Shown here: positions 7,701-22,749 of the stretch, piece after piece
How positions within the stretch are numbered: position 1 is the first letter of the stretch
How the letters are laid out: every line of letters starts with the position of its first letter
DNA from: Methanomicrobia archaeon LH_S13
GTDB lineage: Archaea; Halobacteriota; Syntropharchaeia; Alkanophagales; Methanospirareceae
Assembly: GCA_023659785.1 (NCBI GenBank)
Contig: JAGXOR010000003.1
Location: 1-34,045 of the forward strand
Reading direction: 5' to 3'
Length of the DNA stretch: 34,045 nt
Translations under genes and position numbers: made by a program
Notes under the pieces: generated by a model
The model's input: the letters and a program-made list of their open reading frames with translations, nothing else
What the model was told of the DNA's origin: nothing
Databases searched by the model: none

Positions 7701-8144
7701 TTGAACTACTCCTCGCTATCGCAAGGGGCTTCCTACTTCAACGATAGAATTTAGGATTCTCTATCTGTCGCCCATCGCTATCAGTAAGGAAGGACTTTAT
7801 GCCCATATCCAGACCAACTCCGATCTTGGATATGCGCAACTTATCAAGCCTATTACCTGTCTTTATAACTTTGAACTCCGATTGATTCAGGATGAAGCTA
7901 TTGAACTGCCCGTATTTCTTATAGCGCAGCTTACCGACTTTTCTCCATCTCTTCTTCAACCCTTCCTTCTCTTCTTTCATCTTCGGCAGCATCGCCTGTA
8001 AATTATACCGGGAAGGAATCTTCTCGCTGTCATTCCAAATAGCTAAGAAGGAGTTGTAGAGCAACCTGCAGGCATATCTCTAACACCGATAACAACTTCT
8101 TTTCGTCTTCTTTCTTCGGATACAGCCGAAACTTATATGTTCAC
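7701..8144 (-). mobile_element. tnpB: IS200/IS605-family tnpB relic, internally deleted, right end intact
   Basis: N-terminal TYKFRLYP, frameshifted LYNSFL...KVGKLRYKK, RuvC-I VGLDMGIKSFLTDSDG..IENPKF. It then jumps to a right-end hairpin GAAGCCCCTTGCGATAGCGAGGAGTAGTTCAA ending at 7701. Confidence 0.85.
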
Positions 8145-11283: not shown

Positions 11284-12138
11284 TCATCTAATCTCTTCTA
11301 TTATTCCCTTTACTTCCTCTATATCTTTTATCCTGAAATCCGCAACCTCAAAAATCCTCCTCTGTCTGTCTGCTTCTTCTTGCAGCGACAACACCGTGAT
11401 ATCCGCCTCCCGCATCGCAAGATAATCATTCCTGTCGTCCCCCACCATTATCACCTTATGCTCTTCCTTCAACTTCTTTACCAAATCCCTCTTATCCTCT
11501 GGTTTCATCATTCCAAAAATATTGTCCGCTGGTATGTCAGGTAAATATGTCTCCATTTCCTCTCCTTCTATCCTATCCCCGGATGCGACAAAAACCAGGA
11601 TGCCCATCTCACGTAATTCTTTTAGCAGTTTTAGCGTTCCAGGGAAAAAACGTATACCCCCAGCAATCACGTATTTTATCACTCCTCCTGCCACATCCAT
11701 AATCAAACCCACCCCTACCACTGGAAGGATATCGCACCTCCTTAAAAGTGACATCGTTTCATACACGTCCTTCAATTTAACGTTTTTATCCTTCCAAATT
11801 GCTTCCATTACTTCATTGTCACTAATCCCTTTTTTCTTATAAACCACCTTATTTTCTATTCTTTTCTTGCGCATCAACTCAGATAGAATTTCGTAAGGTT
11901 CTTCTTTCTCCAGCGTTTCTTCATATCTTGTCTTTAAAATTGTCATCGCACCCCTTTCAAGCCTGTCCGTACAGGTCGTTCCTGCAACTCTGCTCCGTTT
12001 TGTCACGCCTCTTTCCATATTTTTTATAATCCTGAAAGGTGCGTATAAAACGCCGGCACCGTCAAAAACAACCGCTACCTCAGACATTCTAATTCTCTCT
12101 CCCATTCCCATCCTATAACTCCTACTTTTCTCAGCCAT
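11284..12138 (-). CDS. HAD-superfamily hydrolase (soluble P-type ATPase-like)
   Basis: VVFDGAG, ASGDR, PEDK, MVGDDRNDYLAMREAD motifs. Confidence 0.8.
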   Translation of the reverse strand: MAEKSRSYRMGMGERIRMSEVAVVFDGAGVLYAPFRIIKNMERGVTKRSRVAGTTCTDRLERGAMTILKTRYEETLEKEEPYEILSELMRKKRIENKVVYKKKGISDNEVMEAIWKDKNVKLKDVYETMSLLRRCDILPVVGVGLIMDVAGGVIKYVIAGGIRFFPGTLKLLKELREMGILVFVASGDRIEGEEMETYLPDIPADNIFGMMKPEDKRDLVKKLKEEHKVIMVGDDRNDYLAMREADITVLSLQEEADRQRRIFEVADFRIKDIEEVKGIIEEIR

Positions 12139-12238
12139 AAAACCTTTCTTTAAAAAAGAAAGATAACTTTACCAAAGAAACAACTATTTTTTGATAAAAC
12201 TTTCTTCTAAAAAGTTTTAATAGAAAGGTGATAATAAA

Positions 12239-14344
12239 ATGATGCAGGACCTGATAACAGAGAGGTGGGAGGACTTTCTGAAGCGGTATTGTTGGAACGG
12301 GCTTATAGATATGTCAAATTCTTATCCGGAAAAGCGTAGTTTGTTTGTCAAATTCTCTGATATGGACATATATGACCCGAATCTTGCAGATATGCTTTTA
12401 GAAGACCCTGATGTGGCAATTGCTTCTGCAACACATGCTTTAAGGGAGATGGATATTCCCACGGGTGTTACACTTGATGAAGCTAATCTTCGTATAATTA
12501 AGCTTCCGAGAAAGGTGAAGATACGGGATATCCGAAGCAACGACATAGGTAAGCTGGTGAGTATAGAGGGGCTGATAACAAAGGCGACCGAGGTGAGACC
12601 GAGAGTAGTGGAAGCGGTATTTGAATGCCCTTTTTGCGGGCATATCTTTTCGCTAGAGCAGAGTGGAAGGCAATTCAAAGAGCCGAGGGAGTGCGAGCGC
12701 GAGAGTGGTGGCTGTGGTAGAAAGATACAGCATTTTAAGTTATTGGTGGATAAGTGCAAATTCGCAAATGCGCAAAAGATAAAGTTACAGGAGTCGCCTG
12801 AGGAATTAAGAGGCGGAGAATTACCACAAGCGATAGATGTCAATCTGGAAGACGACATTTCAGGTGAGGTCTCTCCCGGCGACCGGGTAATTGTTACCGG
12901 TATTATCAGGTCATATCAGAGGACGACACAATTTGGGAAGACGCCTTTCTTCGATATATACTTAGATGGCAATTCGTTGGAAATAAAGGAGGAGGAGTTT
13001 GAAGAGATAGAGATAACAGAGGAGGATGAGCGAGAAATAATGGAACTCAAGGATCAGCCGGACGTGTATGAGAAGCTTATAAAAAGCATCGCTCCCTCTA
13101 TCTATGGCTATGAAGAGATAAAAGAAGCGATGATTCTCCAATTGTTCGCAGGCATTCCAAAAGAGTTGCCGGACGAGACGCGAGTGAGAGGCGACATACA
13201 CTTGCTTCTCGTTGGAGATCCGGGAGTCGCAAAGAGTCAACTACTCACCTACTTAGTGAAGTTAGCACCTCGTGGTTTATACACAGGAGGTAAGAGCAGC
13301 ACTTCTGCGGGGCTTACTGCTGCCGCTGTTAAAGACGAGTTTGGGGAAGGGCGCTGGACTTTAGAAGCTGGTGCATTAGTGCTTGCGGACAAAGGAATAG
13401 CAGCGGTGGATGAGATAGACAAGATGGAGAAAAAGGACCGTGAGGCGCTACATGAGGCGATGGAACAGCAAACGGTGAGTATAGCGAAGGCTGGGGTAAT
13501 GGCAAGGTTAAACTCAAGGTGTGCCTTGTTAGCAGCTGCGAATCCCAAATACGGGCGTTTTGATAAATACACGCCGATTGCGGAGCAGATAAATATGCCT
13601 CCTACACTGATGTCAAGATTCGATCTTATTTTTACCATGATGGACCGACCGAATGAAGAGAGGGACACGAAGACTGCAGAACATATATTAGAGACGCATT
13701 ACGCTGGTGAACTTCTTGCAAGGTCTGAGAACATAGGTAAAGTGGACAAGGGGGAAAAAGAGCATTTCGGGGAGGCGATGCAAATAATGGAGCCGGAAGT
13801 AGCAGGGGGATTATTTAGAAAATACGTTGCATGGAGCAAAAGAAATGTATTTCCTGTGATGACTGAAGAAGCGAAAAACAAGTTCATGGATTTTTATATC
13901 GGGCTTCGCAGACAAGGGTATGAGGATGAAGATGCGCCAGTTCCTGTGACAGCACGGCAGTTAGAAGCGTTGATCAGGCTGGGCGAGGCGAGGGCTCGGA
14001 CCAGGCTGAGTGATAAAATAACGGCTGAAGATGCTGAACGTGTAATTAACGTGGTTACATACTGCTTGAAACGTGTTTTTGTTGACCCCGAAACCGGTAA
14101 GCTGGATACCGATTGGATAACCGTTGGCACGACTAAAACACGGAGGGACCGAGCAAGGTCCGTAAGGGAGATAATAAAGGAGTTGGAGAAGGAATACGGC
14201 GATGAAGTTCCGATAGAAGAGGTGCTTGACCTTGCGGAGGAGGAGGGGATGGAAAGAGAAAAGGCTGAGGAGATAATAGAGGTGATGAAGCGGGATGGGA
14301 TATTGTTTGCACCGGGAAGTGGCGTGATTAAGTTCGTGAGGTAA
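12239..14344 (+). CDS. mcm: Replicative helicase MCM
   Basis: Zn finger CPFC..C....C, Walker A GDPGVAKS, VDEIDKM, SRFD, TARQLE; no intein. Confidence 0.97.
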   Translation: MMQDLITERWEDFLKRYCWNGLIDMSNSYPEKRSLFVKFSDMDIYDPNLADMLLEDPDVAIASATHALREMDIPTGVTLDEANLRIIKLPRKVKIRDIRSNDIGKLVSIEGLITKATEVRPRVVEAVFECPFCGHIFSLEQSGRQFKEPRECERESGGCGRKIQHFKLLVDKCKFANAQKIKLQESPEELRGGELPQAIDVNLEDDISGEVSPGDRVIVTGIIRSYQRTTQFGKTPFFDIYLDGNSLEIKEEEFEEIEITEEDEREIMELKDQPDVYEKLIKSIAPSIYGYEEIKEAMILQLFAGIPKELPDETRVRGDIHLLLVGDPGVAKSQLLTYLVKLAPRGLYTGGKSSTSAGLTAAAVKDEFGEGRWTLEAGALVLADKGIAAVDEIDKMEKKDREALHEAMEQQTVSIAKAGVMARLNSRCALLAAANPKYGRFDKYTPIAEQINMPPTLMSRFDLIFTMMDRPNEERDTKTAEHILETHYAGELLARSENIGKVDKGEKEHFGEAMQIMEPEVAGGLFRKYVAWSKRNVFPVMTEEAKNKFMDFYIGLRRQGYEDEDAPVPVTARQLEALIRLGEARARTRLSDKITAEDAERVINVVTYCLKRVFVDPETGKLDTDWITVGTTKTRRDRARSVREIIKELEKEYGDEVPIEEVLDLAEEEGMEREKAEEIIEVMKRDGILFAPGSGVIKFVR

Positions 14345-15284: not shown

Positions 15285-16082
15285 ATGGCAAAAGAAAAGG
15301 AGAAAATTCTGATAGTGCTTACGCCTTCGGAATCAAAACGGGTGATTGCAAAGGGTGTGAAGAACTTAGAAGAAGTGCAGCGAGCGTTGAAACAGGGCAC
15401 TATCATAATAGGGCTGGGTACTACAAATGCTTATGTAGCCGATGAGATTTTGAGTGAGTTGTCTGGAGCGAATACGATAGATAAGCAGAGATACGCTGCT
15501 GGTGTCATAACGGACAAGGGCACTTGCGTTGTCACGAAAGAAGAGAGGGTAAGGGAAGTAATAATAAAAAATGGCGTGGTAAGCAGCGACGAGAGCATAG
15601 CAGACGCGATAGAGGAGTTATCTGTGGAAGACGTGTTCATAAAAGGTGCAAATGCGTTGGATGCAACCGGAAATGCAGGCATACTCCTGGCACATACCGC
15701 CGGTGGCACGATAGGTTCAGCGATTGGAACCGTGAGGGCAAGAGGCGTGAATTTTATCATTCCCGTGGGTATTGAGAAAATGATACCTTATTCCATTACA
15801 GAGGCTGCGAAACGAGTAGGGAAGGAGAGATTCTACAAATCGGTGGGTATGCCAGTAGGGTTGATGCCCGTGCATGGAAAGATAATTACCGAGATAGAGG
15901 CACTGAGAATATTAGGAGCTGAGGATGCCTTCCCCATAAGTGCAGGCGGTGTGGCTCGAGGAGAGGGTTCTGTTGTTATATGCGCTGAAGGTAGTACGGA
16001 GAAGATGGACGAATTGATGACACTTATATCGCAAATAAAAGGAGAAGTGCAGGTAAAAGTGATGAGTGTAGAGTGCGGGTAA
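15285..16082 (+). CDS. Conserved hypothetical protein (possible NagB/RpiA/CoA-transferase-like fold)
   Basis: Long ORF with host-like codon usage; LTPSESKRVIAKG, GTTNAYVA, FIKGANALD, GGTIG. Fold assignment is tentative. Confidence 0.7.
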   Translation: MAKEKEKILIVLTPSESKRVIAKGVKNLEEVQRALKQGTIIIGLGTTNAYVADEILSELSGANTIDKQRYAAGVITDKGTCVVTKEERVREVIIKNGVVSSDESIADAIEELSVEDVFIKGANALDATGNAGILLAHTAGGTIGSAIGTVRARGVNFIIPVGIEKMIPYSITEAAKRVGKERFYKSVGMPVGLMPVHGKIITEIEALRILGAEDAFPISAGGVARGEGSVVICAEGSTEKMDELMTLISQIKGEVQVKVMSVECG

Positions 16083-16201
16083 TCGGTAAGGGAGCCAAGA
16101 TTCATGATGCAGGATACAGAATACAAGTTTAGGGATTCCTCTTGTTTTACTTGCATCTCCAATTATAAAACTTTTTATATATAGAAGGTGAAGAATAAAA
16201 C

Positions 16202-16852
16202 ATGGCGGAAAGAAGAAGAAGACCCTCAATATTTGATTTGATGGAGAAGTATATGGAGCGGATGTTTGAAGATGCGAGAGGAGTGCGAGTACCATTCGAG
16301 GAGGAGTTCTCAAGAAGGCTGAGAAGAGAGCCGGAGGATAGAGAGGAGTGGTTAAGAGACCCGTTTGAGGATATAACGAGGAGATTAGAAGAGGAATTGC
16401 CAGAAGAGTACAAGGATTTTGTAACGGAAGAGGAGACGGCGGAGGGAAAAGGAAGGAGACACGGTCCTTTCATTTACGGGTTCTCCTATACAAAGGAGCC
16501 GGAAAAGGAGCCGGAGATAAAAGAGTTCGGAAATATAAAACCTTCGTACAGAAGAATAGAGCCTGCTCCAGGAGGCGAACGTGAGCCTTTGATAGATGTG
16601 ATGGAGCAGAAGGATTCGTACGAAGTCGTAGCGGAATTGCCAGGTGTCGAGAAGCGCGATATAAAATTGCATACAACCGAAGACTCACTGGAAATAAGAA
16701 CGGGAAACGAGAAAAAGTACTTCAAGGAAATACCCTTTGACATGCCTGTAAAGTCCGAAACTGCAAAGGCGACTTATAAAAACGGCGTGCTCAGCGTAAA
16801 GATAGCAAAGAAAGAAGACGAGAAGAAGAAGACTACTATAACATTGGATTGA
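16202..16852 (+). CDS. Small heat-shock protein Hsp20
   Basis: GPFIYGFS, EFGN, REPLIDV, AELPGVEK, ATYKNGVL; TTTTTATATATA box at ~16172 and GGTGA RBS upstream. Confidence 0.93.
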   Translation: MAERRRRPSIFDLMEKYMERMFEDARGVRVPFEEEFSRRLRREPEDREEWLRDPFEDITRRLEEELPEEYKDFVTEEETAEGKGRRHGPFIYGFSYTKEPEKEPEIKEFGNIKPSYRRIEPAPGGEREPLIDVMEQKDSYEVVAELPGVEKRDIKLHTTEDSLEIRTGNEKKYFKEIPFDMPVKSETAKATYKNGVLSVKIAKKEDEKKKTTITLD

Positions 16853-16862
16853 GCGAAAGGAA

Positions 16863-17181
16863 GGATTCGCAAATAAGTGGATTTAAGTCCACCTAAGTGG
16901 TCATTACCCAGAGCTTCTCAGTGCCACCTTTTCCCGCAGCTTCTCTCTTACTTCGCTCACCACGAGTTCGGCGACATCTGATGCATTTCGTTCATCGACC
17001 TCTATTTTCATCGGTCTCTTTATTTGTTTATTTACTTCTGTTACTATATAAAGGTCAATGATAATCAATCAGGATTTGGGAATGGACGTGCACACAGCAT
17101 CGGCATTAGTATTGGGGTTGCGGTATTTGCATACACCTAAAACCCCCATAAAACTATGAAAAAGGTAGCTGCTACGATAGG
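16863..17181 (+). mobile_element. ~315-bp non-autonomous element, copy 1 (IS607-like)
   Basis: Highly similar to 20895-21209; GG at both ends (right end placed by alignment to copy 2); three TAAG motifs at 10-bp spacing near the left end; TnpB-related tail LGMDVHTASALVLGLR. Confidence 0.7.
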
Positions 17182-17222
17182 CGACACGCTTCAAGGCTTC
17201 CAGCATTTTGAGAGGGAAGGTA

Positions 17223-17987
17223 ATGAAAGACATTACAAAAAATAAAATGACATGGAAAGACGAGAAAGAGGAACTCGGAAAAGAGATAACTTGTTTGTTA
17301 TACGAAAAAGGGCTGATAAAAACATGGTATCGTGATAATCCCGGTGGTTGGACGCTCGTTTCTGGCTTATGGAGTCCCTTCTACATCCAATTGAGACCTC
17401 TCTCTTCTTATCATGAACTGCTCAGAAAAGTGGGCTATGCTCTTGGAAAAATAATCAAAGAGGAATGCAAAGATGTAAATAAAGTGGTGGGTGTCGCAAT
17501 GACGGGAACACCTATCGCCAGTGCAATAGCAATACTGGTGGGCATACCATCGCTCTGGACGAGAAAAGTAGATGTCAGGTCTTCGGACGAATTCGAGAAG
17601 TACATTCAGAGTTATGGTGAGCATACGCTGGTAGAGGGCGAGTTTGAAACGGGCGACCGGATAGCGGTTATTGACGACCTGGCGACTAAATTCGATTCCA
17701 AACTCGTTGCAATTGAGCAAATGAACTACGAAGCGAAGAAGAGAGGTTTAAAAGTTGAATGTAAGGATGTGGTTGTTTTACTCGACCGTGAGCAGGGAGC
17801 GGCTGAAGTTGCCGCTCAGCATGGCATTTCGTTTTATTCTCTCATCCCCTTTAAGTCGAAAGGGATAGAATGGCTGAAAAGCAAAGTATCAAAAATCGAA
17901 TATGAAGTCATCAGCGGATATTTACAGGATGAGACGAAATATCAGGATGCTGAGGTTCAGAAGGAGTTATATGAGATTGTTTTTTGA
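17223..17987 (+). CDS. Orotate phosphoribosyltransferase-like protein (divergent type I PRTase)
   Basis: TLVSGLWSPFYIQLR, YGEHTLVEG, IAVIDDLAT, VVLLDREQG. Confidence 0.75.
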   Translation: MKDITKNKMTWKDEKEELGKEITCLLYEKGLIKTWYRDNPGGWTLVSGLWSPFYIQLRPLSSYHELLRKVGYALGKIIKEECKDVNKVVGVAMTGTPIASAIAILVGIPSLWTRKVDVRSSDEFEKYIQSYGEHTLVEGEFETGDRIAVIDDLATKFDSKLVAIEQMNYEAKKRGLKVECKDVVVLLDREQGAAEVAAQHGISFYSLIPFKSKGIEWLKSKVSKIEYEVISGYLQDETKYQDAEVQKELYEIVF

Positions 17988-18059
17988 GGTAATTATTTTT
18001 ATCCAATAATTATTTGATTTATTATTGCGAAATTTATGATGTTAGACTAAATAAAGAGA

Positions 18060-19052
18060 ATGAAAATCATCCCTGAAGAGATTAAGGACATTGAAAGGCT
18101 ACAGAAATATGAACGAATATTTCATGGACTTTTAAAAAACGAAATTTTTTCTAAACATGATATATGGGATTGCGGTGAGAGCAAAAGATTAATCGGGAGG
18201 ATAATAAATATACTTCTTGACGAAGGTTCGATTGTTAAACAGGCAAAAGAGACTTTTCAATGGGAACCCTCTTCTATAGAATTGTATAAGAAAGAATGGA
18301 TTGCTTCTGTGCGTCCCTCACATCAATTAAAGAGATTGAGGAAGGAAGAACGACCGAGAGAGAAACTTCTCATTTATGGGTCTTCCAAACTAACCACGCC
18401 TGAACTTTTAGCCATCTTCCTGCGTTCAGGGATTCAAGGTAAAAGTGCAATAATAATCGCAAATGACCTTCTCACGCAGTTTGGAGGTGTGAAAGGGATA
18501 TTTGAAGCAGATAAAAAGAAGCTTATGGAAATAGAAGGGTTAGGTGAGGCAAAAGTTGCACAAATAAAGGCGATTCATGCACTGGCTGAGGAATACTTGA
18601 AGGAGACGATGAAATCGGTTAGTAAAGTGAGAAACTCGAAAGAGGTGTTTGATTACCTGTATCTAACAATGCGAGATTTAAAAACAGAAAAATTCAAGGT
18701 TATTTATTTGAACAGTGCAGGTCAGATTATTGGTGATGAGAACCTTTTTGAGGGGACATTAAACGCGAGTTCGGTGTATCCAAGAGAGATAGTGAAAAGT
18801 GCGGTCAGTAAGAACGCCGCTTCGCTTATATTTGTTCATAATCATCCTTCGGGAGACCCTACACCTTCGGAAAGCGACAAGGCGATAACAGAAGATTTGG
18901 TCTATGCGTGTAACACCATGCAAATTAAAGTCTTAGACCATATTATTATAGGTGAGAATAGATATTTCAGTTTTACAGACGAGGGGTTAATTGAGGAGTA
19001 TAATTTAAATTTTTGTAGTATAAAAGAAAGTAGAAGAGGAGCAAATAGATGA
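18060..19052 (+). CDS. radC: RadC family JAB-domain protein with extra N-terminal domain
   Basis: [18 protein letters not shown], Hh[35 protein letters not shown]. Confidence 0.92.
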
Positions 19053-19053
19053 G

Positions 19054-20413
19054 ATGAATAAACTAAGTGATGAGGAGATAGAATATATGAGTAAATGTTT
19101 AACAGAGGGTAAGCCGCTTCCAGATAGTTACAGGTATATCATTCCTTTTGAGACAAAAAAGGAATATGAACTTACTTATGAAGGCAAGGAGCGGGAGGAA
19201 GAAATACTCGCAGATACAATGGCGGTTCCTTTGCAACCCGTGAAAACCTTTGGTGATGGAAATGGTGGCTGGACGAACAAGCTGATTTTTGGCGATAACC
19301 ATCAGGTTCTTAAAGCCTTAATGGATGATCCTGAGGTTTACGATAAAAATGCAGGAAAAGGAAAGGTGAGGCTGATTTATATTGATCCTCCTTTTGCTAC
19401 AAAACAGGAATTCAGAGGCACTCAGGATCAAAAGGCTTATCAGGATAAGATAATAGGAGCGCAGTTCCTGGAATTTCTGAGAAAAAGGCTTGTCTTTTTG
19501 AGAGAGCTCTTGGCTGATGATGGGAGTATCTACGTGCATTTGGACTGGAGAAAAGCTCATTATTTTAAGACTTTAATGGATGAGATTTTTGGAGAGCATA
19601 ATTTAGTTAATGAAATAATATGGAATTATAAAGGAACGACTAACAGCCAGAATATGTATGCAAGGAAACACGAAACCATTTATTTTTATACAAAAAATTG
19701 GGGCAAGCATATTTTTAATCCCGATGGTGTAAGAATTGGATATGATGATTTATCTGCATACAAAAAGGACAAGGGCGGTAAGTGGTATAAACAGTGGACA
19801 AAGGAACGGAGACATTACCCAGCTCAAGAATTTATGAATGGCGAATGGGTACTATTAGGTAAATATAGATACGATGTGTGGGATGATGTTCCATCAATGG
19901 CTACAGCTCATGGCTCTGAGTATTTAGGTTTTCCAAATCAGAAGAAAGAAAGACTATTAGAAATTATCATCAAAGCTTCCTCCAATCCTGGTGATATTGT
20001 TCTTGACGCCTTTGCTGGTTCTGGGACAATAGGAGCAGTGGCAGAAAAACTTGGTAGAAGATGGATTATGATTGATTGTGGTAAACTTGCCATTTATACT
20101 ATGCAAAAAAGATTGCTAAATCTTAAGGAAAAGATTGGCAATAAAGGAAAGGCATTAAAGCCAAAACCTTTTACTCTTTATAACGCTGGTCTGTATAATT
20201 ATAAAATGGTTAAAGATTTGCCCAGGGATAAATATAGGGAATTTGTGCTTAAACTCTTTCAGTGCAGGGATGAAAAACATAGAATTGCTGGTGTAGAACT
20301 GGACGGTTATCTTTGTGCGGGGGCAGATGATGATTATTTATATTGATATTTTCGGGAATGAGAAGAGAGAGATGAAGAGATTAGAGAACTTTAAGGAAAG
20401 GGGGCAAAATTAA
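19054..20413 (+). pseudogene. Type III R-M-like adenine methyltransferase (Mod), internal deletion and frameshift near 3' end
   Basis: [21 protein letters not shown] motifs. The ORF stops at 20346, but a Mod-like C-terminus [21 protein letters not shown] continues in another frame to ~20413. Confidence 0.8.
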
Positions 20414-21375
20414 TGGAGACAAGATTAAAAACCTCTTGTCTATACACCAGATGAGTGGAAATGTGCAGAGGAGATTAATAGTGCCTTTATCCGGTTAGTT
20501 TTATCAAAAGGAATTGTTTTATCAGACGCAAAGAGTAGAAGAAAAGACCATTTATGAGCGAGCAGTTACGGAGGATCGGCGGGAGAAGAGCACTCTTATA
20601 GAGTTTGATGTGTACACTGCTGAAGAGATTGCTCAAATTGTTCATAATAGGTACAAAAGTTGGGATATGGAAGAAAGCACAAATTATGCTCAAGAACACC
20701 CTCTTGATAAAATCTTACCCATTATTAGAAATTCTTTGGAACAGAGGGGAAATTTAATTAATGAAAAGGGCAGACAGAGGATATTGCAAGCATTTGGGGT
20801 AATAAAAAGGAAGAGAAGCAAAAGTTTGCGGTATAAAGTAGAAGTCGAGAACATTTTTAAAATTAACACATCAGATATTAAAAGAAGTAGTTTAGGGTTC
20901 ACAAATAAGCGGTCTTAAGTCCACCTAAGTGATCATTACCCGGCTTCTCGGTGCCACCTTTCCCCGCAGCTTCTCTCTTACTTTGCTCACCACGAGTTCG
21001 CCGACATCCGATGCATTGCGTTCATCGACCTCTATTTTCATCGGTCTCATTATTTGTTTATTTACTTCTGTTACTATATAAAGGTTAATGATAATCAATC
21101 ACGATTTGGGAATGGACGTGCACACAGCATCGGCATTAGTATTGGGGTTGCGGTATTTGCATACACTTAAAACCACATAAGAGCATGAAAACTGGAACTG
21201 TTGAAAAGGCATTGGTGCCTTGAGAAGGGATGGTAGTATTTTCTATGACAATTACTCCGTGAGTAACAGTGATGAAGAAGATAGAAAGCTGTTAAAAGAA
21301 CTGTTGGATGACGAAACTCTTCCAAGATATGCATTACAGAGGATCGAAATGAATCGGAACTTGAAGCAAATTTAG
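20413..21375 (+). pseudogene. Type III R-M-like restriction subunit (Res) remnant, heavily deleted and interrupted by an insertion
   Basis: ATG overlaps the Mod-tail stop. The middle fragment ends ..NTSDIKRSSLG at 20896 and resumes in frame after the element as IGALRRDGSIFYDNYS..LLKELLDDETLPR. Res identity comes from position and recalled similarity; no helicase motifs remain. Confidence 0.6.
20895..21209 (+). mobile_element. ~311-bp non-autonomous element, copy 2 (IS607-like)
   Basis: Direct-orientation copy of 16863-17181. Removing 20897-21209 leaves one GG and restores an open frame TTA GGC ATT GGT GCC TTG AGA AGG. Confidence 0.78.
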
Positions 21376-21393
21376 AAGAATAGACAACAAAAA

Positions 21394-22749
21394 ATGAACA
21401 TAAGAGCAAGAAAAATATACGAGGCGCTGTTTGCACTTGAAGACCTGCGAGGAATATTCAGGCATGCCTTACCCACGGGACTCGACAAAAACGAAGAAGA
21501 ACAACTCTTAACTGGCATAGCCCGTGTAGAAGCCATCATAAAAGAATTAAAAGAGGGCAAGGGCAGCCCAATCAAATACGTAGAGGATAAGATTGAACTA
21601 AGAACAATAGAAGAAGAATTCATAAACATTAATGCCATTCAACCCGGTGGGAGATTAACGCCAGAAGCGCGAAAAGCACTTATTGCATACGGCGATGGAT
21701 ATTCCGTCTGCGATAAATGTCTGGAGGGCAGGCTTGATAAGATCAGAAAACCGCCTGTGGACGAATTCCATGCAGAACTCGCCGAATTTGTAGGTATGGA
21801 CGAAGTAAGGGTTGTGCCGGGTGCGAGGAGAGGTTTCCAGGCTGTTACTTCCTCTCTGCTTGAGAAAGGCGACATCGTGTTAGTTTCGGATTTGGCGCAT
21901 TATACCGAGTACTTAGCAGTAGAGAATGTAGGTGGCAAAATTAAAGAAGTTCCTTCTGGCGAGAAGAACATAATTACCGGTGATGCCGTAGCAGAAAAGA
22001 TAGAAAGTGTGAAGGAAGAGACGGGAAAACTACCTAAACTTATCATCATTGAGCATTTTGATTACGGCTTCGGGAACGAGCATGACGTGTATGGCGTGGG
22101 AAAGGTTGCAAAGGGATATGACATCCCTTTTCTTTACAATGGCGCTTATTCCGTGGGGATACTGCCCGTGAACGGTAAGGACATAGGAGCTGACTTCGTT
22201 GTGGGCTCAGGGCATAAGAGTATGGCGGCAGTCGCACCCTCAGGCATCCTTGCCACTACTGAAGATTGGGCACCAAAAGTATTCAGAGGCAGTCATATAG
22301 TTGGAGATACCACAGGTAGGAGATTCGAGAATAAAGAGCCGGAGATGCTGGGCTGCACCCTGATGGGTGGGACATTGCTATCCATGATGGCTTCTTTTCC
22401 ATACATAAAAGAGCGAGTGAAGAGATGGGATGAGGAAGTAAAGAAATCAAATTATTTCATCCAAGAGTTCTTGCGAATAGAAGGGAATAAAATATCGAGT
22501 GAATATCCTCGTAAACATACGCTTTCAAAAGTTGATACTCGCGATAGTTTCGACAGAATTGCGAAGAGGCATAAGCGACGAGGCTTTTTTCTCAGCGATG
22601 AATTGAAGCGAAGAGGAATTATAGGTGAATTCGCAGGCTCGACAAGGGTATGGGAACTTAATACTTATGGGTTGTGCTGGGGCAGGATAAAGTACCTGAG
22701 CGAGGCGTTCAAAGAAATAGCGGGGAAATATGAGTTGCCTATACGATAG
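21394..22749 (+). CDS. pscS: Sep-tRNA:Cys-tRNA synthase (SepCysS) with N-terminal extension
   Basis: FININAIQPGGRLT, GDGYSVCDKC, GARRG, PLP lysine SGHKS, LGCT. Confidence 0.93.
   Translation: MNIRARKIYEALFALEDLRGIFRHALPTGLDKNEEEQLLTGIARVEAIIKELKEGKGSPIKYVEDKIELRTIEEEFININAIQPGGRLTPEARKALIAYGDGYSVCDKCLEGRLDKIRKPPVDEFHAELAEFVGMDEVRVVPGARRGFQAVTSSLLEKGDIVLVSDLAHYTEYLAVENVGGKIKEVPSGEKNIITGDAVAEKIESVKEETGKLPKLIIIEHFDYGFGNEHDVYGVGKVAKGYDIPFLYNGAYSVGILPVNGKDIGADFVVGSGHKSMAAVAPSGILATTEDWAPKVFRGSHIVGDTTGRRFENKEPEMLGCTLMGGTLLSMMASFPYIKERVKRWDEEVKKSNYFIQEFLRIEGNKISSEYPRKHTLSKVDTRDSFDRIAKRHKRRGFFLSDELKRRGIIGEFAGSTRVWELNTYGLCWGRIKYLSEAFKEIAGKYELPIR

Follow-up and report, generated by a model that had tools for sequence, protein, structure and literature searches.

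The stretch of DNA analysed here, in the following called the window, comprises 34,045 nucleotides of the Methanomicrobia archaeon LH_S13 (assembly GCA_023659785.1, contig JAGXOR010000003.1), and it contains two copies of a short mobile sequence, the mini-element. From left to right, each copy is made up of a left half with a conserved structured RNA encoded on the minus strand, a TATA box, a remnant of protein-coding sequence and a right terminal motif (Table 1). The copies, which are 96% identical over 232 nt according to a repeat search, are internal-deletion derivatives of an element of about 1.4 kb that encodes a ribbon-helix-helix (RHH) protein and a TnpB-like nuclease. They are non-autonomous and resemble miniature inverted-repeat transposable elements (MITEs) or palindrome-associated transposable elements (PATEs). 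The best explanation overall, which is held here with moderate confidence, is that the mini-element represents a self-contained guide-RNA cassette, the RNA being the product of the minus strand of the left half.

A first-pass annotation, made from the letters of the window, had pointed to several features of this locus that are indeed present: the box TATATAAA in copy 1 and at the corresponding place in copy 2, the peptide DLGMDVHTASALVLGLRYL, in frame at 17073-17129 within an open reading frame (ORF) of 33 codons, a block of about 64 nt (GATTTGGG...CATACAC) that is identical in both copies and has lower identity on either side, and a right end at GG, where the copies stop (17180-17181 and 21208-21209). 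The stem-loop that was noted for both copies (GGGGTT...AACCCC in copy 1) is confined to copy 1, as copy 2 reads AACCAC; it is found neither in relatives nor in the RNAalifold predictions. The region from 17045 to 17200, which had been taken for a plus-strand guide (omega) RNA gene, consists of a predicted promoter with its TATA box, a coding remnant and the recombination end on the side of the predicted target-adjacent motif (TAM).

Copies, junctions and ends of the mini-element

In the assembled genome (264 contigs, 85.6% complete), 18 left junctions and, besides that of copy 1, 20 right junctions were found, with flanks that differ from one junction to another. The pattern used for the right end gave 26 matches, six of which (C27, C110, C111, C187, C209 and C258) were dropped because the upstream sequence of the element is missing there. 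The repeat is clearly not a product of chance. Most junctions lie at contig ends, where exactly 55 nt match at 100% identity, which indicates that the mini-element breaks the assembly. For annotation, this means that it accounts for many of the contig breaks of this assembly and that it interrupts at least one gene.

The interrupted gene is the one that harbours copy 2. In each of two sequencing runs of one study (X1 and X2), one contig joins position 20893 to 21207, skipping 313 nt and sharing three letters (AGG) at the joint, and therefore represents the empty site of copy 2; since the copy is absent from these related contigs, its insertion is demonstrated. In the empty form, an ORF of 187 codons is open across the joint (20514-20918 with 21207-21374). 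This ORF has no Pfam match and is preceded by genes for a DNA methylase (19054-20343) and a RadC-like protein (18060-19049); to call it a restriction gene, as in the first-pass annotation, would be a guess. Over copy 2, word depth reaches about 1000-1660 against about 10 in its flanks (runs X3 and X4, the former being a data set that holds the window), a summed depth that is not to be read as a copy number. A single contig of run X4, in which 17138 is linked to 18174 with a change of strand, points to an inversion or other rearrangement with one breakpoint inside copy 1.

The mini-element lacks a transposase gene, retains both parental ends, occurs in many copies and shows insertion polymorphism, as expected of MITEs and PATEs; according to the part of Dyall-Smith et al. 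2011 (PMC3119063) consulted here, these always retain both ends. As far as the available accounts of PATEs and protein-less IS200/IS605 elements go (PMC3119063, PMC10055086), it resembles them in being a deletion derivative with fused ends and no protein gene that far outnumbers its parents. In contrast to those elements, which are described as being moved by Y1 (HUH) transposases with subterminal DNA hairpins, the ends found here are of the serine-recombinase type, and the mini-element keeps a predicted TATA promoter of its own for the RNA.

At the level of single letters, the junctions show a recurrent pattern. GG is present at all 18 left junctions, preceded by a purine at -3 in 17 of them and by T at -4 in 13. 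The right end of the element is (A/C)GG; 18 of the 20 flanks beyond it have C as their first letter, and in 12 of the 20 the first two letters are CA. In copy 1 an A (16862) stands before the GG, so that both of its junctions read AGG. Full-length copies in metagenome contigs have the same junctions as the mini-elements, and one of these copies (L155), with TGG on the left and AGG on the right, indicates that only GG is shared. A GG core is hence common to both junctions and to the target, without any longer target duplication, which is the arrangement of IS607 elements. The IS607 type proposed in the first-pass annotation is supported both by this core and by the ends themselves, each of which resembles an end of the classical IS607 tnpA-tnpB elements of the same genomes.

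The right terminal motif of about 28 nt (CTAYGAAAA.TGAAAC(T/A)G(T/C)T...(A/C)GG) is kept whether it is coding or not. When reversed (CCTTTTCAACAGTT..), it resembles the tnpA-proximal (left) ends of classical IS607 elements, such as CCCTTGCAACAGTT.. (two copies in this genome) and CCTTTGTAACTGTTAC.. (in the genome G018), the latter adjoining a mini-copy that ends ..GTAACTGTTACAAAGG. At the left end, the last 45 nt or so of the structured RNA (AGGTGG.CTTA...ACC.CTTA.....GAAC, then CC, then flank) align with the sequence 3' of classical IS607-type tnpB genes at five places in this genome and at one in G021, and the similarity stops after CC. Placed in the frame of a classical IS607 element, the 'left' end would therefore correspond by its sequence to the guide-RNA end and the 'right' end to the TAM-side end, with the nuclease operon inverted relative to the RNA.

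No serine-recombinase TnpA is encoded by the mini-element itself. Two IS607-type serine transposase genes (about 195-200 aa, with a Resolvase domain and N-terminal extensions) are present in the genome, both cut by contig ends (G000 C232:1-582, minus strand, and C188:~12010-12552, plus strand), together with a third fragment (C245:724-903). In G018, a transposase with 82% identity is followed by a zinc-finger TnpB, which is the classical IS607 organization. For the IS607 element of the Clostridium IStron, the text available from Zedaveinyte et al. (10.1101/2023.11.20.567912) describes a serine transposase, a shared GG core with no further duplication, a T(G/A)GG-like target, a guide RNA whose scaffold ends at the core, and TGGG as the TAM of TnpB. 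The element described here is like that IS607 element in its core dinucleotide common to both junctions and target, in the lack of a further target duplication, in an RNA scaffold that ends at the core with a (predicted) guide from the adjoining flank, and in a (likewise predicted) TAM on the other flank, one or two bases of which set it apart from the end of the transposon itself; its ends are also similar in sequence to those of the classical copies of the same genomes. It is unlike IS607 in having no tnpA, in that its nuclease comes from a different TnpB branch, and in the inversion of the nuclease operon relative to the RNA, which does not overlap the nuclease gene.

A hairpin at the right end, GTAAC-T-GTTAC (variants GTAGC/GCTAC and GCAAC/GTTGC), looks compensatory in close copies only. 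Among 40 termini its first half stays GAAAC and its second half varies freely, so the sequence is read as a protein-binding motif rather than as a hairpin. The right end (17156-17181 and 21184-21209; C37:56; L067, 1487 minus) also carries an outward-facing ATG, with the readings MKTGTVEK and MKKVAATIG. This ATG enters an open frame of at least 60 codons in three of 18 distinct junctions (C37, 933 aa; C75, 86 aa; L157, 63 aa), a count without a fair control, and the ORF of 933 codons has a signal-peptide-like start. In G079, the outward ATG is in frame with what we take to be a gyrA-like ORF.

The parent element and its nuclease

The right half of the mini-element is 75-78% identical to DNA of three other genera of the same family, and in two of the genomes (G021 and G003) the homologous stretch is the 3' end of an open frame. 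A protein search of 68 genomes of the order led to a full-length copy in G079. In the direction of the nuclease, it starts with the left end and continues with about 190 nt that hold a small ORF on the opposite strand, an A/T-rich region with TATATAAA, a gene for a 52-aa RHH protein and the gene for a protein of 339 aa (P0001), about 30 nt 3' of which it terminates in AAAGG. The parent layout comprises, in its 5' part, the left end, a structured RNA gene of about 155 nt on the opposite strand and an A/T-rich promoter region, and, in its 3' part, a small RHH or MazE/AbrB gene, a TnpB-like nuclease of 335-340 aa and a right terminal motif of about 30 nt.

In the window copies, the sequence that separates the RHH start codon from the last 29 nuclease codons is missing altogether. 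The 11-mers on the two sides of this deletion are nearly identical: the one at the RHH start is GAATAATAAAT in the C108 variant of the genome, the full-length copy having GATAATAAAC there, and the one within the nuclease gene is GAATAATCAAT. Loss of the DNA between two such short repeats thus accounts for the joint and for the fused ORF M-IIN-QDLG..., in which the start codon and 'IIN' of the RHH gene are joined to the nuclease codons. In copy 1 this remnant reads MIINQDLGMDVHTASALVLGLRYLHTPKTPIKL, with the RuvC-III motif DVHTASA, and in copy 2 MIINHDLGMDV...HTLKTT. The frame is broken by two 1-nt gaps in a mini-copy of G018 (L054), in which the DNA is kept.

A second kind of mini-element (G000 C197:1-125 and C242:20456-20810, and locus L054) has the same module of RHH start, nuclease 3' end and right end. 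Its left part is a different one, matched by the 3' end and the right end of a zinc-finger tnpB of the classical IS607 kind. In C197 and C242, the right-end motif (GAACTGTTACAAAGG) is directly followed by a partial right end of 70 nt, which looks like a nested insertion. Shorter variants (C200:1-113 and C108:1-83 of G000; L003 and L005) break off at the RHH start codon (..TATATAAAGGTTAAAGAGAAAATGG), beyond which their sequence is unrelated; they have the appearance of cassettes of RNA plus promoter only, with AAAATGG as a substitute right end. C200 carries parts of the element at each of its ends.

The peptide of the mini-element had been compared in the first-pass annotation with the C-terminal RuvC motif of TnpB-related nucleases, and this likeness holds, since the features of the parent nuclease match a published TnpB clade. 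Its full-length relatives end ...NPAYSS-x-NARIINQDLGMDVHTASALVLGLRYLHT, and by sequence the peptide is part of the last 29 nuclease codons, in the C-terminal RuvC-III region of a TnpB-like nuclease. A full-length gene of the peptide's family is present in relatives, including G079, and probably in the data set X3, where a contig with nuclease-coding sequence runs into the element at 17056, its 30 shown letters being identical to L155. For P0001, no match was obtained with the local Pfam library, and the NCBIfam models gave collinear matches below their cut-offs (TIGR01765, 8e-9, 35.3 bits against 47.25; NF040570, 7e-5, 22.2 bits against 100; TIGR01766, 1e-4, 22.7 bits against 32). When the family profile was compared with PDB sequences, Cas12X was matched at 3e-8 and Cas12j/Cas12f chains at 0.008-0.03; the hhalign alignment to one classical TnpB of the genome was collinear, with a probability of 1.7%, which is uninformative.

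In total, 75 homologues of P0001 were found in metagenome-assembled genomes and isolates of many archaeal lineages, the nucleases of the clade coming largely from hydrothermal and hot-spring metagenome genomes. A few of them are named TnpB or transposase by their source, and PF27229 is annotated on all 75. In 54 aligned homologues, D191 (FDLNSDR), E255 (FVFExL) and H321 (within DxHTASA) are invariant and D319 is present in at least 90%, so that the RuvC-I Asp, the RuvC-II Glu and the RuvC-III motif follow each other in the usual order. NPAYTS and LGLDxHTASA are separated by only some 12 residues, among which there are no Cys pairs and hence no zinc finger. The genes upstream of the nuclease fall into ORF clusters of 21, 21 and 17, with RHH or MazE/AbrB directly upstream; one example matches PF04014 MazE_antitoxin at 3e-11, and matches to RHH_6 were obtained at 4e-6 and 0.006.

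On these sequence features, the parent nuclease matches the archaeal 'RHH/MazE-TnpB' clade (RIIIr-4 branch) of Altae-Tran et al. 2023 (PMC10691335), the main text of which describes archaeal proteins with no zinc finger and with a RuvC-III Asp replaced by His; the invariant H321 is a candidate for this His. What is common to both, within that account, is the distribution over eury- and crenarchaeal lineages, a predicted active nuclease, an RHH or MazE/AbrB gene directly upstream, the absence of a C4 zinc finger and the conserved RuvC-III His. Unlike the clade as described there (non-mobile or exapted), the element found here has IS607-like ends, an empty site, dozens of junctions and mini-derivatives; this mobility bears on the description of the RIIIr-4 clade and not on homology. 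A second difference concerns the RNA: a possible guide RNA is mentioned there in a long 3' untranslated region, and the conserved RNA here is found upstream and is encoded by the other strand. That main text contains none of the words antisense, ncRNA and opposite strand; the supplement of the paper may bear on the RNAs and the mobility of the clade.

The small RHH gene can also be seen from another angle. In the part consulted of a preprint by Moon et al. 2026 (10.64898/2026.09.24.754181), RHH 'Arc' proteins are described as repressors of the promoters of IS605-family transposons. The element is comparable in that a small RHH gene heads a TnpB operon within a transposon, beside an intergenic promoter, and differs from the Arc systems in that the mini-element, without an RHH gene, keeps the promoter region. 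Arc-type repression may thus offer an alternative to the reading of the RHH gene as an antitoxin.

The structured RNA of the minus strand

According to its conservation in sequence and structure, the structured RNA of the element belongs to the minus strand and the left half, and it would leave the element via the left end. With nine sequences aligned by MAFFT, RNAalifold gave -34.0 kcal/mol and 31 pairs, 6 of them compensatory, for the minus strand, against -10.7 kcal/mol for the plus strand. G-U pairs without variation are numerous in the alignment, and the terminal loop differs in length between sequences. Paired cells amount to 98.2%, compared with 35-46% when the partners are slid. In a test with 500 shuffles, the observed values were never attained for paired cells, for cells with changes on both sides or for the covariation score; the observed number of pairs changed on both sides is reached by 16 of the 500, and that of further pair types by 330. 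Folded singly, copy 1 has a free energy of -41.1 kcal/mol on the minus strand (z -2.68), the plus-strand control being at -22.8 kcal/mol (z +0.20).

The model R2, a covariance model of this RNA, was applied at a threshold of E<=0.01 to 160 loci of the nuclease family; in copy 1 its match (16866-17042) includes the spacer between TATA box and start. It matches 48 of the 160 loci, always on the strand opposite the nuclease and, in the 31 of these 48 loci that were checked by hand, at a distance of 146-187 nt upstream of where the nuclease matches. Among the loci matched are records with Baldrarchaeota, Desulfurococcales, Thermoprotei and Methanomethylicales in their titles. From the matches at this threshold, with duplicates and cut-off matches left out, an alignment of 44 sequences (A8) was made, in which 95.0% of the cells are paired against 38-44% with slid partners and 28 of the 31 pairs are changed on both sides. 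The covariation score is 0.632 against 0.221 in shuffles, and not one of the five measures was equalled in 500 shuffles. RNAalifold, when run alone on this alignment, predicted 29 pairs, 26 of them compensatory.

A search of 16000-22000 on both strands with Rfam cmscan (E<=1) returned three weak, unrelated matches, none of them over 16866-17042 or 20898-21072. None of 18 classical IS607/TnpB sources was matched by R2; the model is thus silent on classical loci, and the RNA resembles IS607 right ends in no more than its last 45 nt or so. Three copies of a conserved (G/A)AUGA (for instance at 17012-17007, 16997-16992 and 16906-16900), together with CUGAG/CCGAG in the long stem, presumably recall box C/D or kink-turn elements, as in archaeal RNAs that bind L7Ae.

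The limits predicted for the RNA are a promoter on one side and the element's own boundary on the other. Its conserved part begins about 24-26 nt downstream of the TATA box (TTTATATA on the minus strand), near 17021, and this is the usual distance between TATA box and start in archaeal promoters. A loose TATA-like pattern lies upstream of the RNA in 32 of the 44 sequences and is too loose to be weighed. At the other end, the model stops 1-3 nt from the left boundary as set by the 18 junctions and the empty site. No run of at least four T precedes the left boundary in the copies read. The small minus-strand ORF (MKIEVDERNA...) that overlies this region is not kept: in G003 a stop follows its sixth codon, and in G079 its frame is shifted.

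Table 1. Coordinates in the window of the two mini-elements, their parts and the flanks discussed
Feature	Position	Strand	Remark
Mini-element, copy 1 (317 nt)	16865..17181	+	alignment with copy 2 and full-length L067/L074, L154-L161
Mini-element, copy 2 (312 nt)	20898..21209	+	consensus type; within the 187-codon ORF 3' of a DNA methylase gene
Structured RNA gene, copy 1 (candidate guide, omega-like RNA)	16866..17021	-	4 helices; 3' end at left boundary; R2 204.6 bits
Structured RNA gene, copy 2	20898..21051	-	R2 match 20898-21072, 204.3 bits
TATA box, copy 1	17045..17052	-	TTTATATA on minus strand, TATATAAA on plus; may also serve the plus strand
TATA box, copy 2	21075..21082	-	
Fusion remnant, copy 1	17058..17159	+	RHH start codon and 'IIN' joined to last 29 nuclease codons; 33 codons
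Fusion remnant, copy 2	21088..21180	+	MIINHDLGMDVHTASALVLGLRYLHTLKTT
GG core, left junction of copy 1	16863..16864	.	CC on RNA strand; GG in 18/18 left junctions
Right terminal motif, copy 1	17154..17181	+	CTATGAAAA..A(A/G)C(T/A)G(C/T)T..(A/C)GG; regular expression: 40 distinct termini, 145 family loci
Right terminal motif, copy 2	21182..21209	+	..CATGAAAACTGGAACTGTTGAAAAGG
Predicted guide template, copy 1 (20 nt of left flank)	16843..16862	-	just after CC core; read from 16862 downwards
Predicted guide template, copy 2	20876..20895	-	junction defined by X1/X2 empty-site contigs; read from 20895 downwards
Right flank, copy 1 (the earlier 'guide')	17182..17201	+	read as TAM-side flank; initial C, giving G-CC on RNA strand

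Elsewhere in the window, positions 1-172 contain a 102-nt tandem repeat (70 nt at 93% identity) within the first ORF, which looks like a repeat-protein gene. At 7720-7824 (minus strand), a weak match to OrfB_IS605 (E 0.0027, with one internal TGA) is possibly a decayed TnpB fragment. In the genome as a whole, many whole or broken classical TnpB genes of several types are found (G000 C58, C262, C193, C248, C22, C81, C252, C194, C8 and C210); most of them end ..AGTTCAC, and one in C248 lies directly upstream of a tRNA-like sequence.

Possible working, alternatives and meaning

If the mini-element is a guide-RNA cassette, its working may be pictured as follows. An IS607-type serine transposase, supplied in trans, would move it, and the minus-strand TATA box would drive the structured RNA. 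Transcription would run through the left end, so that about 20 nt of the flank are taken up as guide, and a full-length RHH-TnpB nuclease made elsewhere would load the RNA and cut the empty site. The predicted guides are placed where conservation stops, after GAAC or GAAT plus CC, across the 18 left junctions and the IS607 right ends. On the RNA strand, the TAM is predicted to be about (T)GCC at the empty site as opposed to ACCC at the occupied site, and cutting of the empty site would favour the retention or homing of the mini-element, as shown for the TnpB of IS605 and IS607. In the IS607 element studied by Zedaveinyte et al., as far as the text consulted goes, self and non-self differ as TGGG and TCGG (10.1101/2023.11.20.567912); a difference of the same kind, by one or two bases, is predicted here.

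Several points weigh against this explanation. Transcript start, transcript end and the transcript as such are predictions from sequence, and two runs labelled RNA-Seq, flagged as probably DNA and coming from relatives without either copy, are uninformative on expression. Binding by the nuclease and use of the flank as guide are suggested only by where the RNA lies, by its structure and by its resemblance to the right ends of IS607. RNA and nuclease gene occupy opposite strands, unlike the known TnpB arrangement, in which guide RNA and gene share a strand and the RNA overlaps the 3' end of the gene. The z scores of single folds of the minus strand are mixed (-2.68 in copy 1, -0.61 in copy 2 and -1.14 in G079), and R2 is silent in 112 of the 160 family loci, including those of Sulfolobales and Thermococcus, some of the silent loci lacking upstream sequence. 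The 44-sequence alignment was fitted to the structure of the model, which leans its counts towards that structure; the MAFFT result with nine sequences is free of this effect. As for the nuclease, P0001, which is the closest full-length copy, has Ala at position 319, where at least 90% of the aligned homologues have Asp, and the assembled genome (complete to the extent given above) holds only 22-29 C-terminal nuclease codons and no RHH gene. Finally, the main text of Altae-Tran et al. (PMC10691335) counts the clade among the non-mobile ones, with a toxin-antitoxin pair as the proposed role and a guide RNA that might be encoded in the 3' region.

The alternative that survives best, though we judge it unlikely, is that of a plain MITE, in which the ends are kept only for the transposase and the minus-strand RNA has another role without a flank guide, such as antisense or cis regulation of the RHH-nuclease operon, action as an RNA antitoxin or as a cofactor of transposition. 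Retention of both ends is, after all, the rule in MITEs and PATEs (in the part of PMC3119063 cited above), the clade has been read as a toxin-antitoxin pair (main text of PMC10691335), and RHH 'Arc' proteins are described as repressing transposon promoters (10.64898/2026.09.24.754181, in the part consulted). The RNA is, moreover, divergent from the operon, as with many regulators, and its expression and its binding to the nuclease belong to the predictions. Against such a role stands the position of the RNA, whose 3' hairpin and terminus coincide precisely with the boundary and correspond to the end at which classical IS607 TnpB elements have their guide RNA, with no run of at least four T before that boundary in the copies read. 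The RNA is also retained in nuclease-less copies, which have no operon to regulate.

Considerably less probable is the plus-strand RNA proposed in the first-pass annotation, in which the sequence following TATATAAA, that is, the last 87 nt of the nuclease gene and the right end, would be the omega RNA, and the right flank (CGACACGC.. in copy 1 and CATTGGTG.. in copy 2) the guide. This would be the classical TnpB layout, with a scaffold that overlaps the 3' end of the gene on the same strand, and the left flanks, with the preferences listed above, are TAM-like and resemble the TGGG TAM described for IS607 TnpB (10.1101/2023.11.20.567912, in the text available). Synonymous variation in the last 30 codons is 0.349, compared with 0.428 in the gene before its last 45 codons (rank 2 of 317 windows), a slight reduction that fits any overlapping DNA or RNA signal. 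The mini-copy of G018, a genome of another genus, keeps this DNA despite its two frame-breaking gaps.

However, no fold above shuffles and no conserved structure were found on this strand. The z scores of its folds are +1.22 and +1.46 in the two copies and +0.21 and -0.04 in two full-length relatives. RNAalifold gave -3.6 kcal/mol with 10 weak pairs (1 compensatory) on 14 close homologues, -13.8 kcal/mol on 293 nt of 10 full-length copies, and no pairs at all on 84 homologous 3' regions, which had been gathered with a sequence-only model. The stem-loop on which the proposal relied is specific to copy 1, as described. A long-range pairing between AACAG (KTGN codons) and CTGTT (right end), which lies outside the mini-element, was considered and rejected, as none of its 5 pairs is changed on both sides. 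Furthermore, several right ends are the same as the target motif of the left flanks (TTAGG in L154 and L156, TAGG in copy 1 and L058), so that a TAM there could not distinguish self from the empty site. The right end matches the tnpA-proximal end of classical IS607 and not the RNA end, and the conservation in this part, which comprises a coding motif and the terminal motif of about 28 nt, is explained by a recombinase site. The right flanks are hence more likely TAM-side flanks than guides. What stands of the first-pass proposal is its idea of a guide-RNA cassette, which is probably right in view of the covarying RNA; the strand and the end that it assigned are probably wrong, the RNA lying on the minus strand of the left half.

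A peptide as the functional product, either the 33-residue fusion or that of the small minus-strand ORF, can be set aside as very improbable: the two ORFs are uninterrupted in each of the window copies and are close to A/T-rich promoter boxes, but neither frame is kept in relatives (the fusion in the G018 mini-copy, where the DNA persists, and the minus-strand ORF in G003 and G079, as noted), the G-U pairs and compensatory changes fit an RNA and not a protein, and no Pfam family matches.

The concept of guide RNAs in elements without a nuclease gene is not new, since omega RNAs in protein-less tnpB derivatives are already in print, at least in the portions of PMC3119063 and PMC10055086 seen here; Meers et al. 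2023 (PMC10055086) state that such derivatives 'often encode omega RNAs', which need a TnpB made elsewhere. What appears to be new is that the RHH/MazE-TnpB clade is mobile here, that it has IS607-type ends and high-copy mini-derivatives, and that the RNA is divergent from the nuclease operon. A literature search returned no description of mobility of the clade, of its IS607-type ends or of a divergent or antisense guide RNA, the supplement of PMC10691335, which may bear on the matter, lying outside its scope. Put in its widest form, the proposal would be that RIIIr-4 RHH/MazE-TnpBs are RNA-guided enzymes with a divergent, opposite-strand omega RNA that exits the other transposon end, that they belong to live IS607-type transposons moved in trans by serine transposases, and that dozens of nuclease-less cassettes with promoters of their own supply flank guides, forming a dispersed guide repertoire against loss; this is put forward tentatively, with rather less confidence than the guide-RNA cassette alone.

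Should this be true, the RHH/MazE-TnpB clade would gain a concrete guide RNA, and at least one of its lineages would be mobile, which would revise its printed reading as a non-mobile toxin-antitoxin system. It would also follow that, inside a single transposon, a TnpB gene can become separated from its guide RNA and take the reverse orientation to it, a state that would be intermediate between an omega RNA that overlaps its gene and the RNA genes of CRISPR systems, which stand apart. Very small nucleases (about 335 aa) without a zinc finger would then be at hand together with a scaffold, a boundary between scaffold and guide, and a predicted TAM, and could be tested as compact editors.

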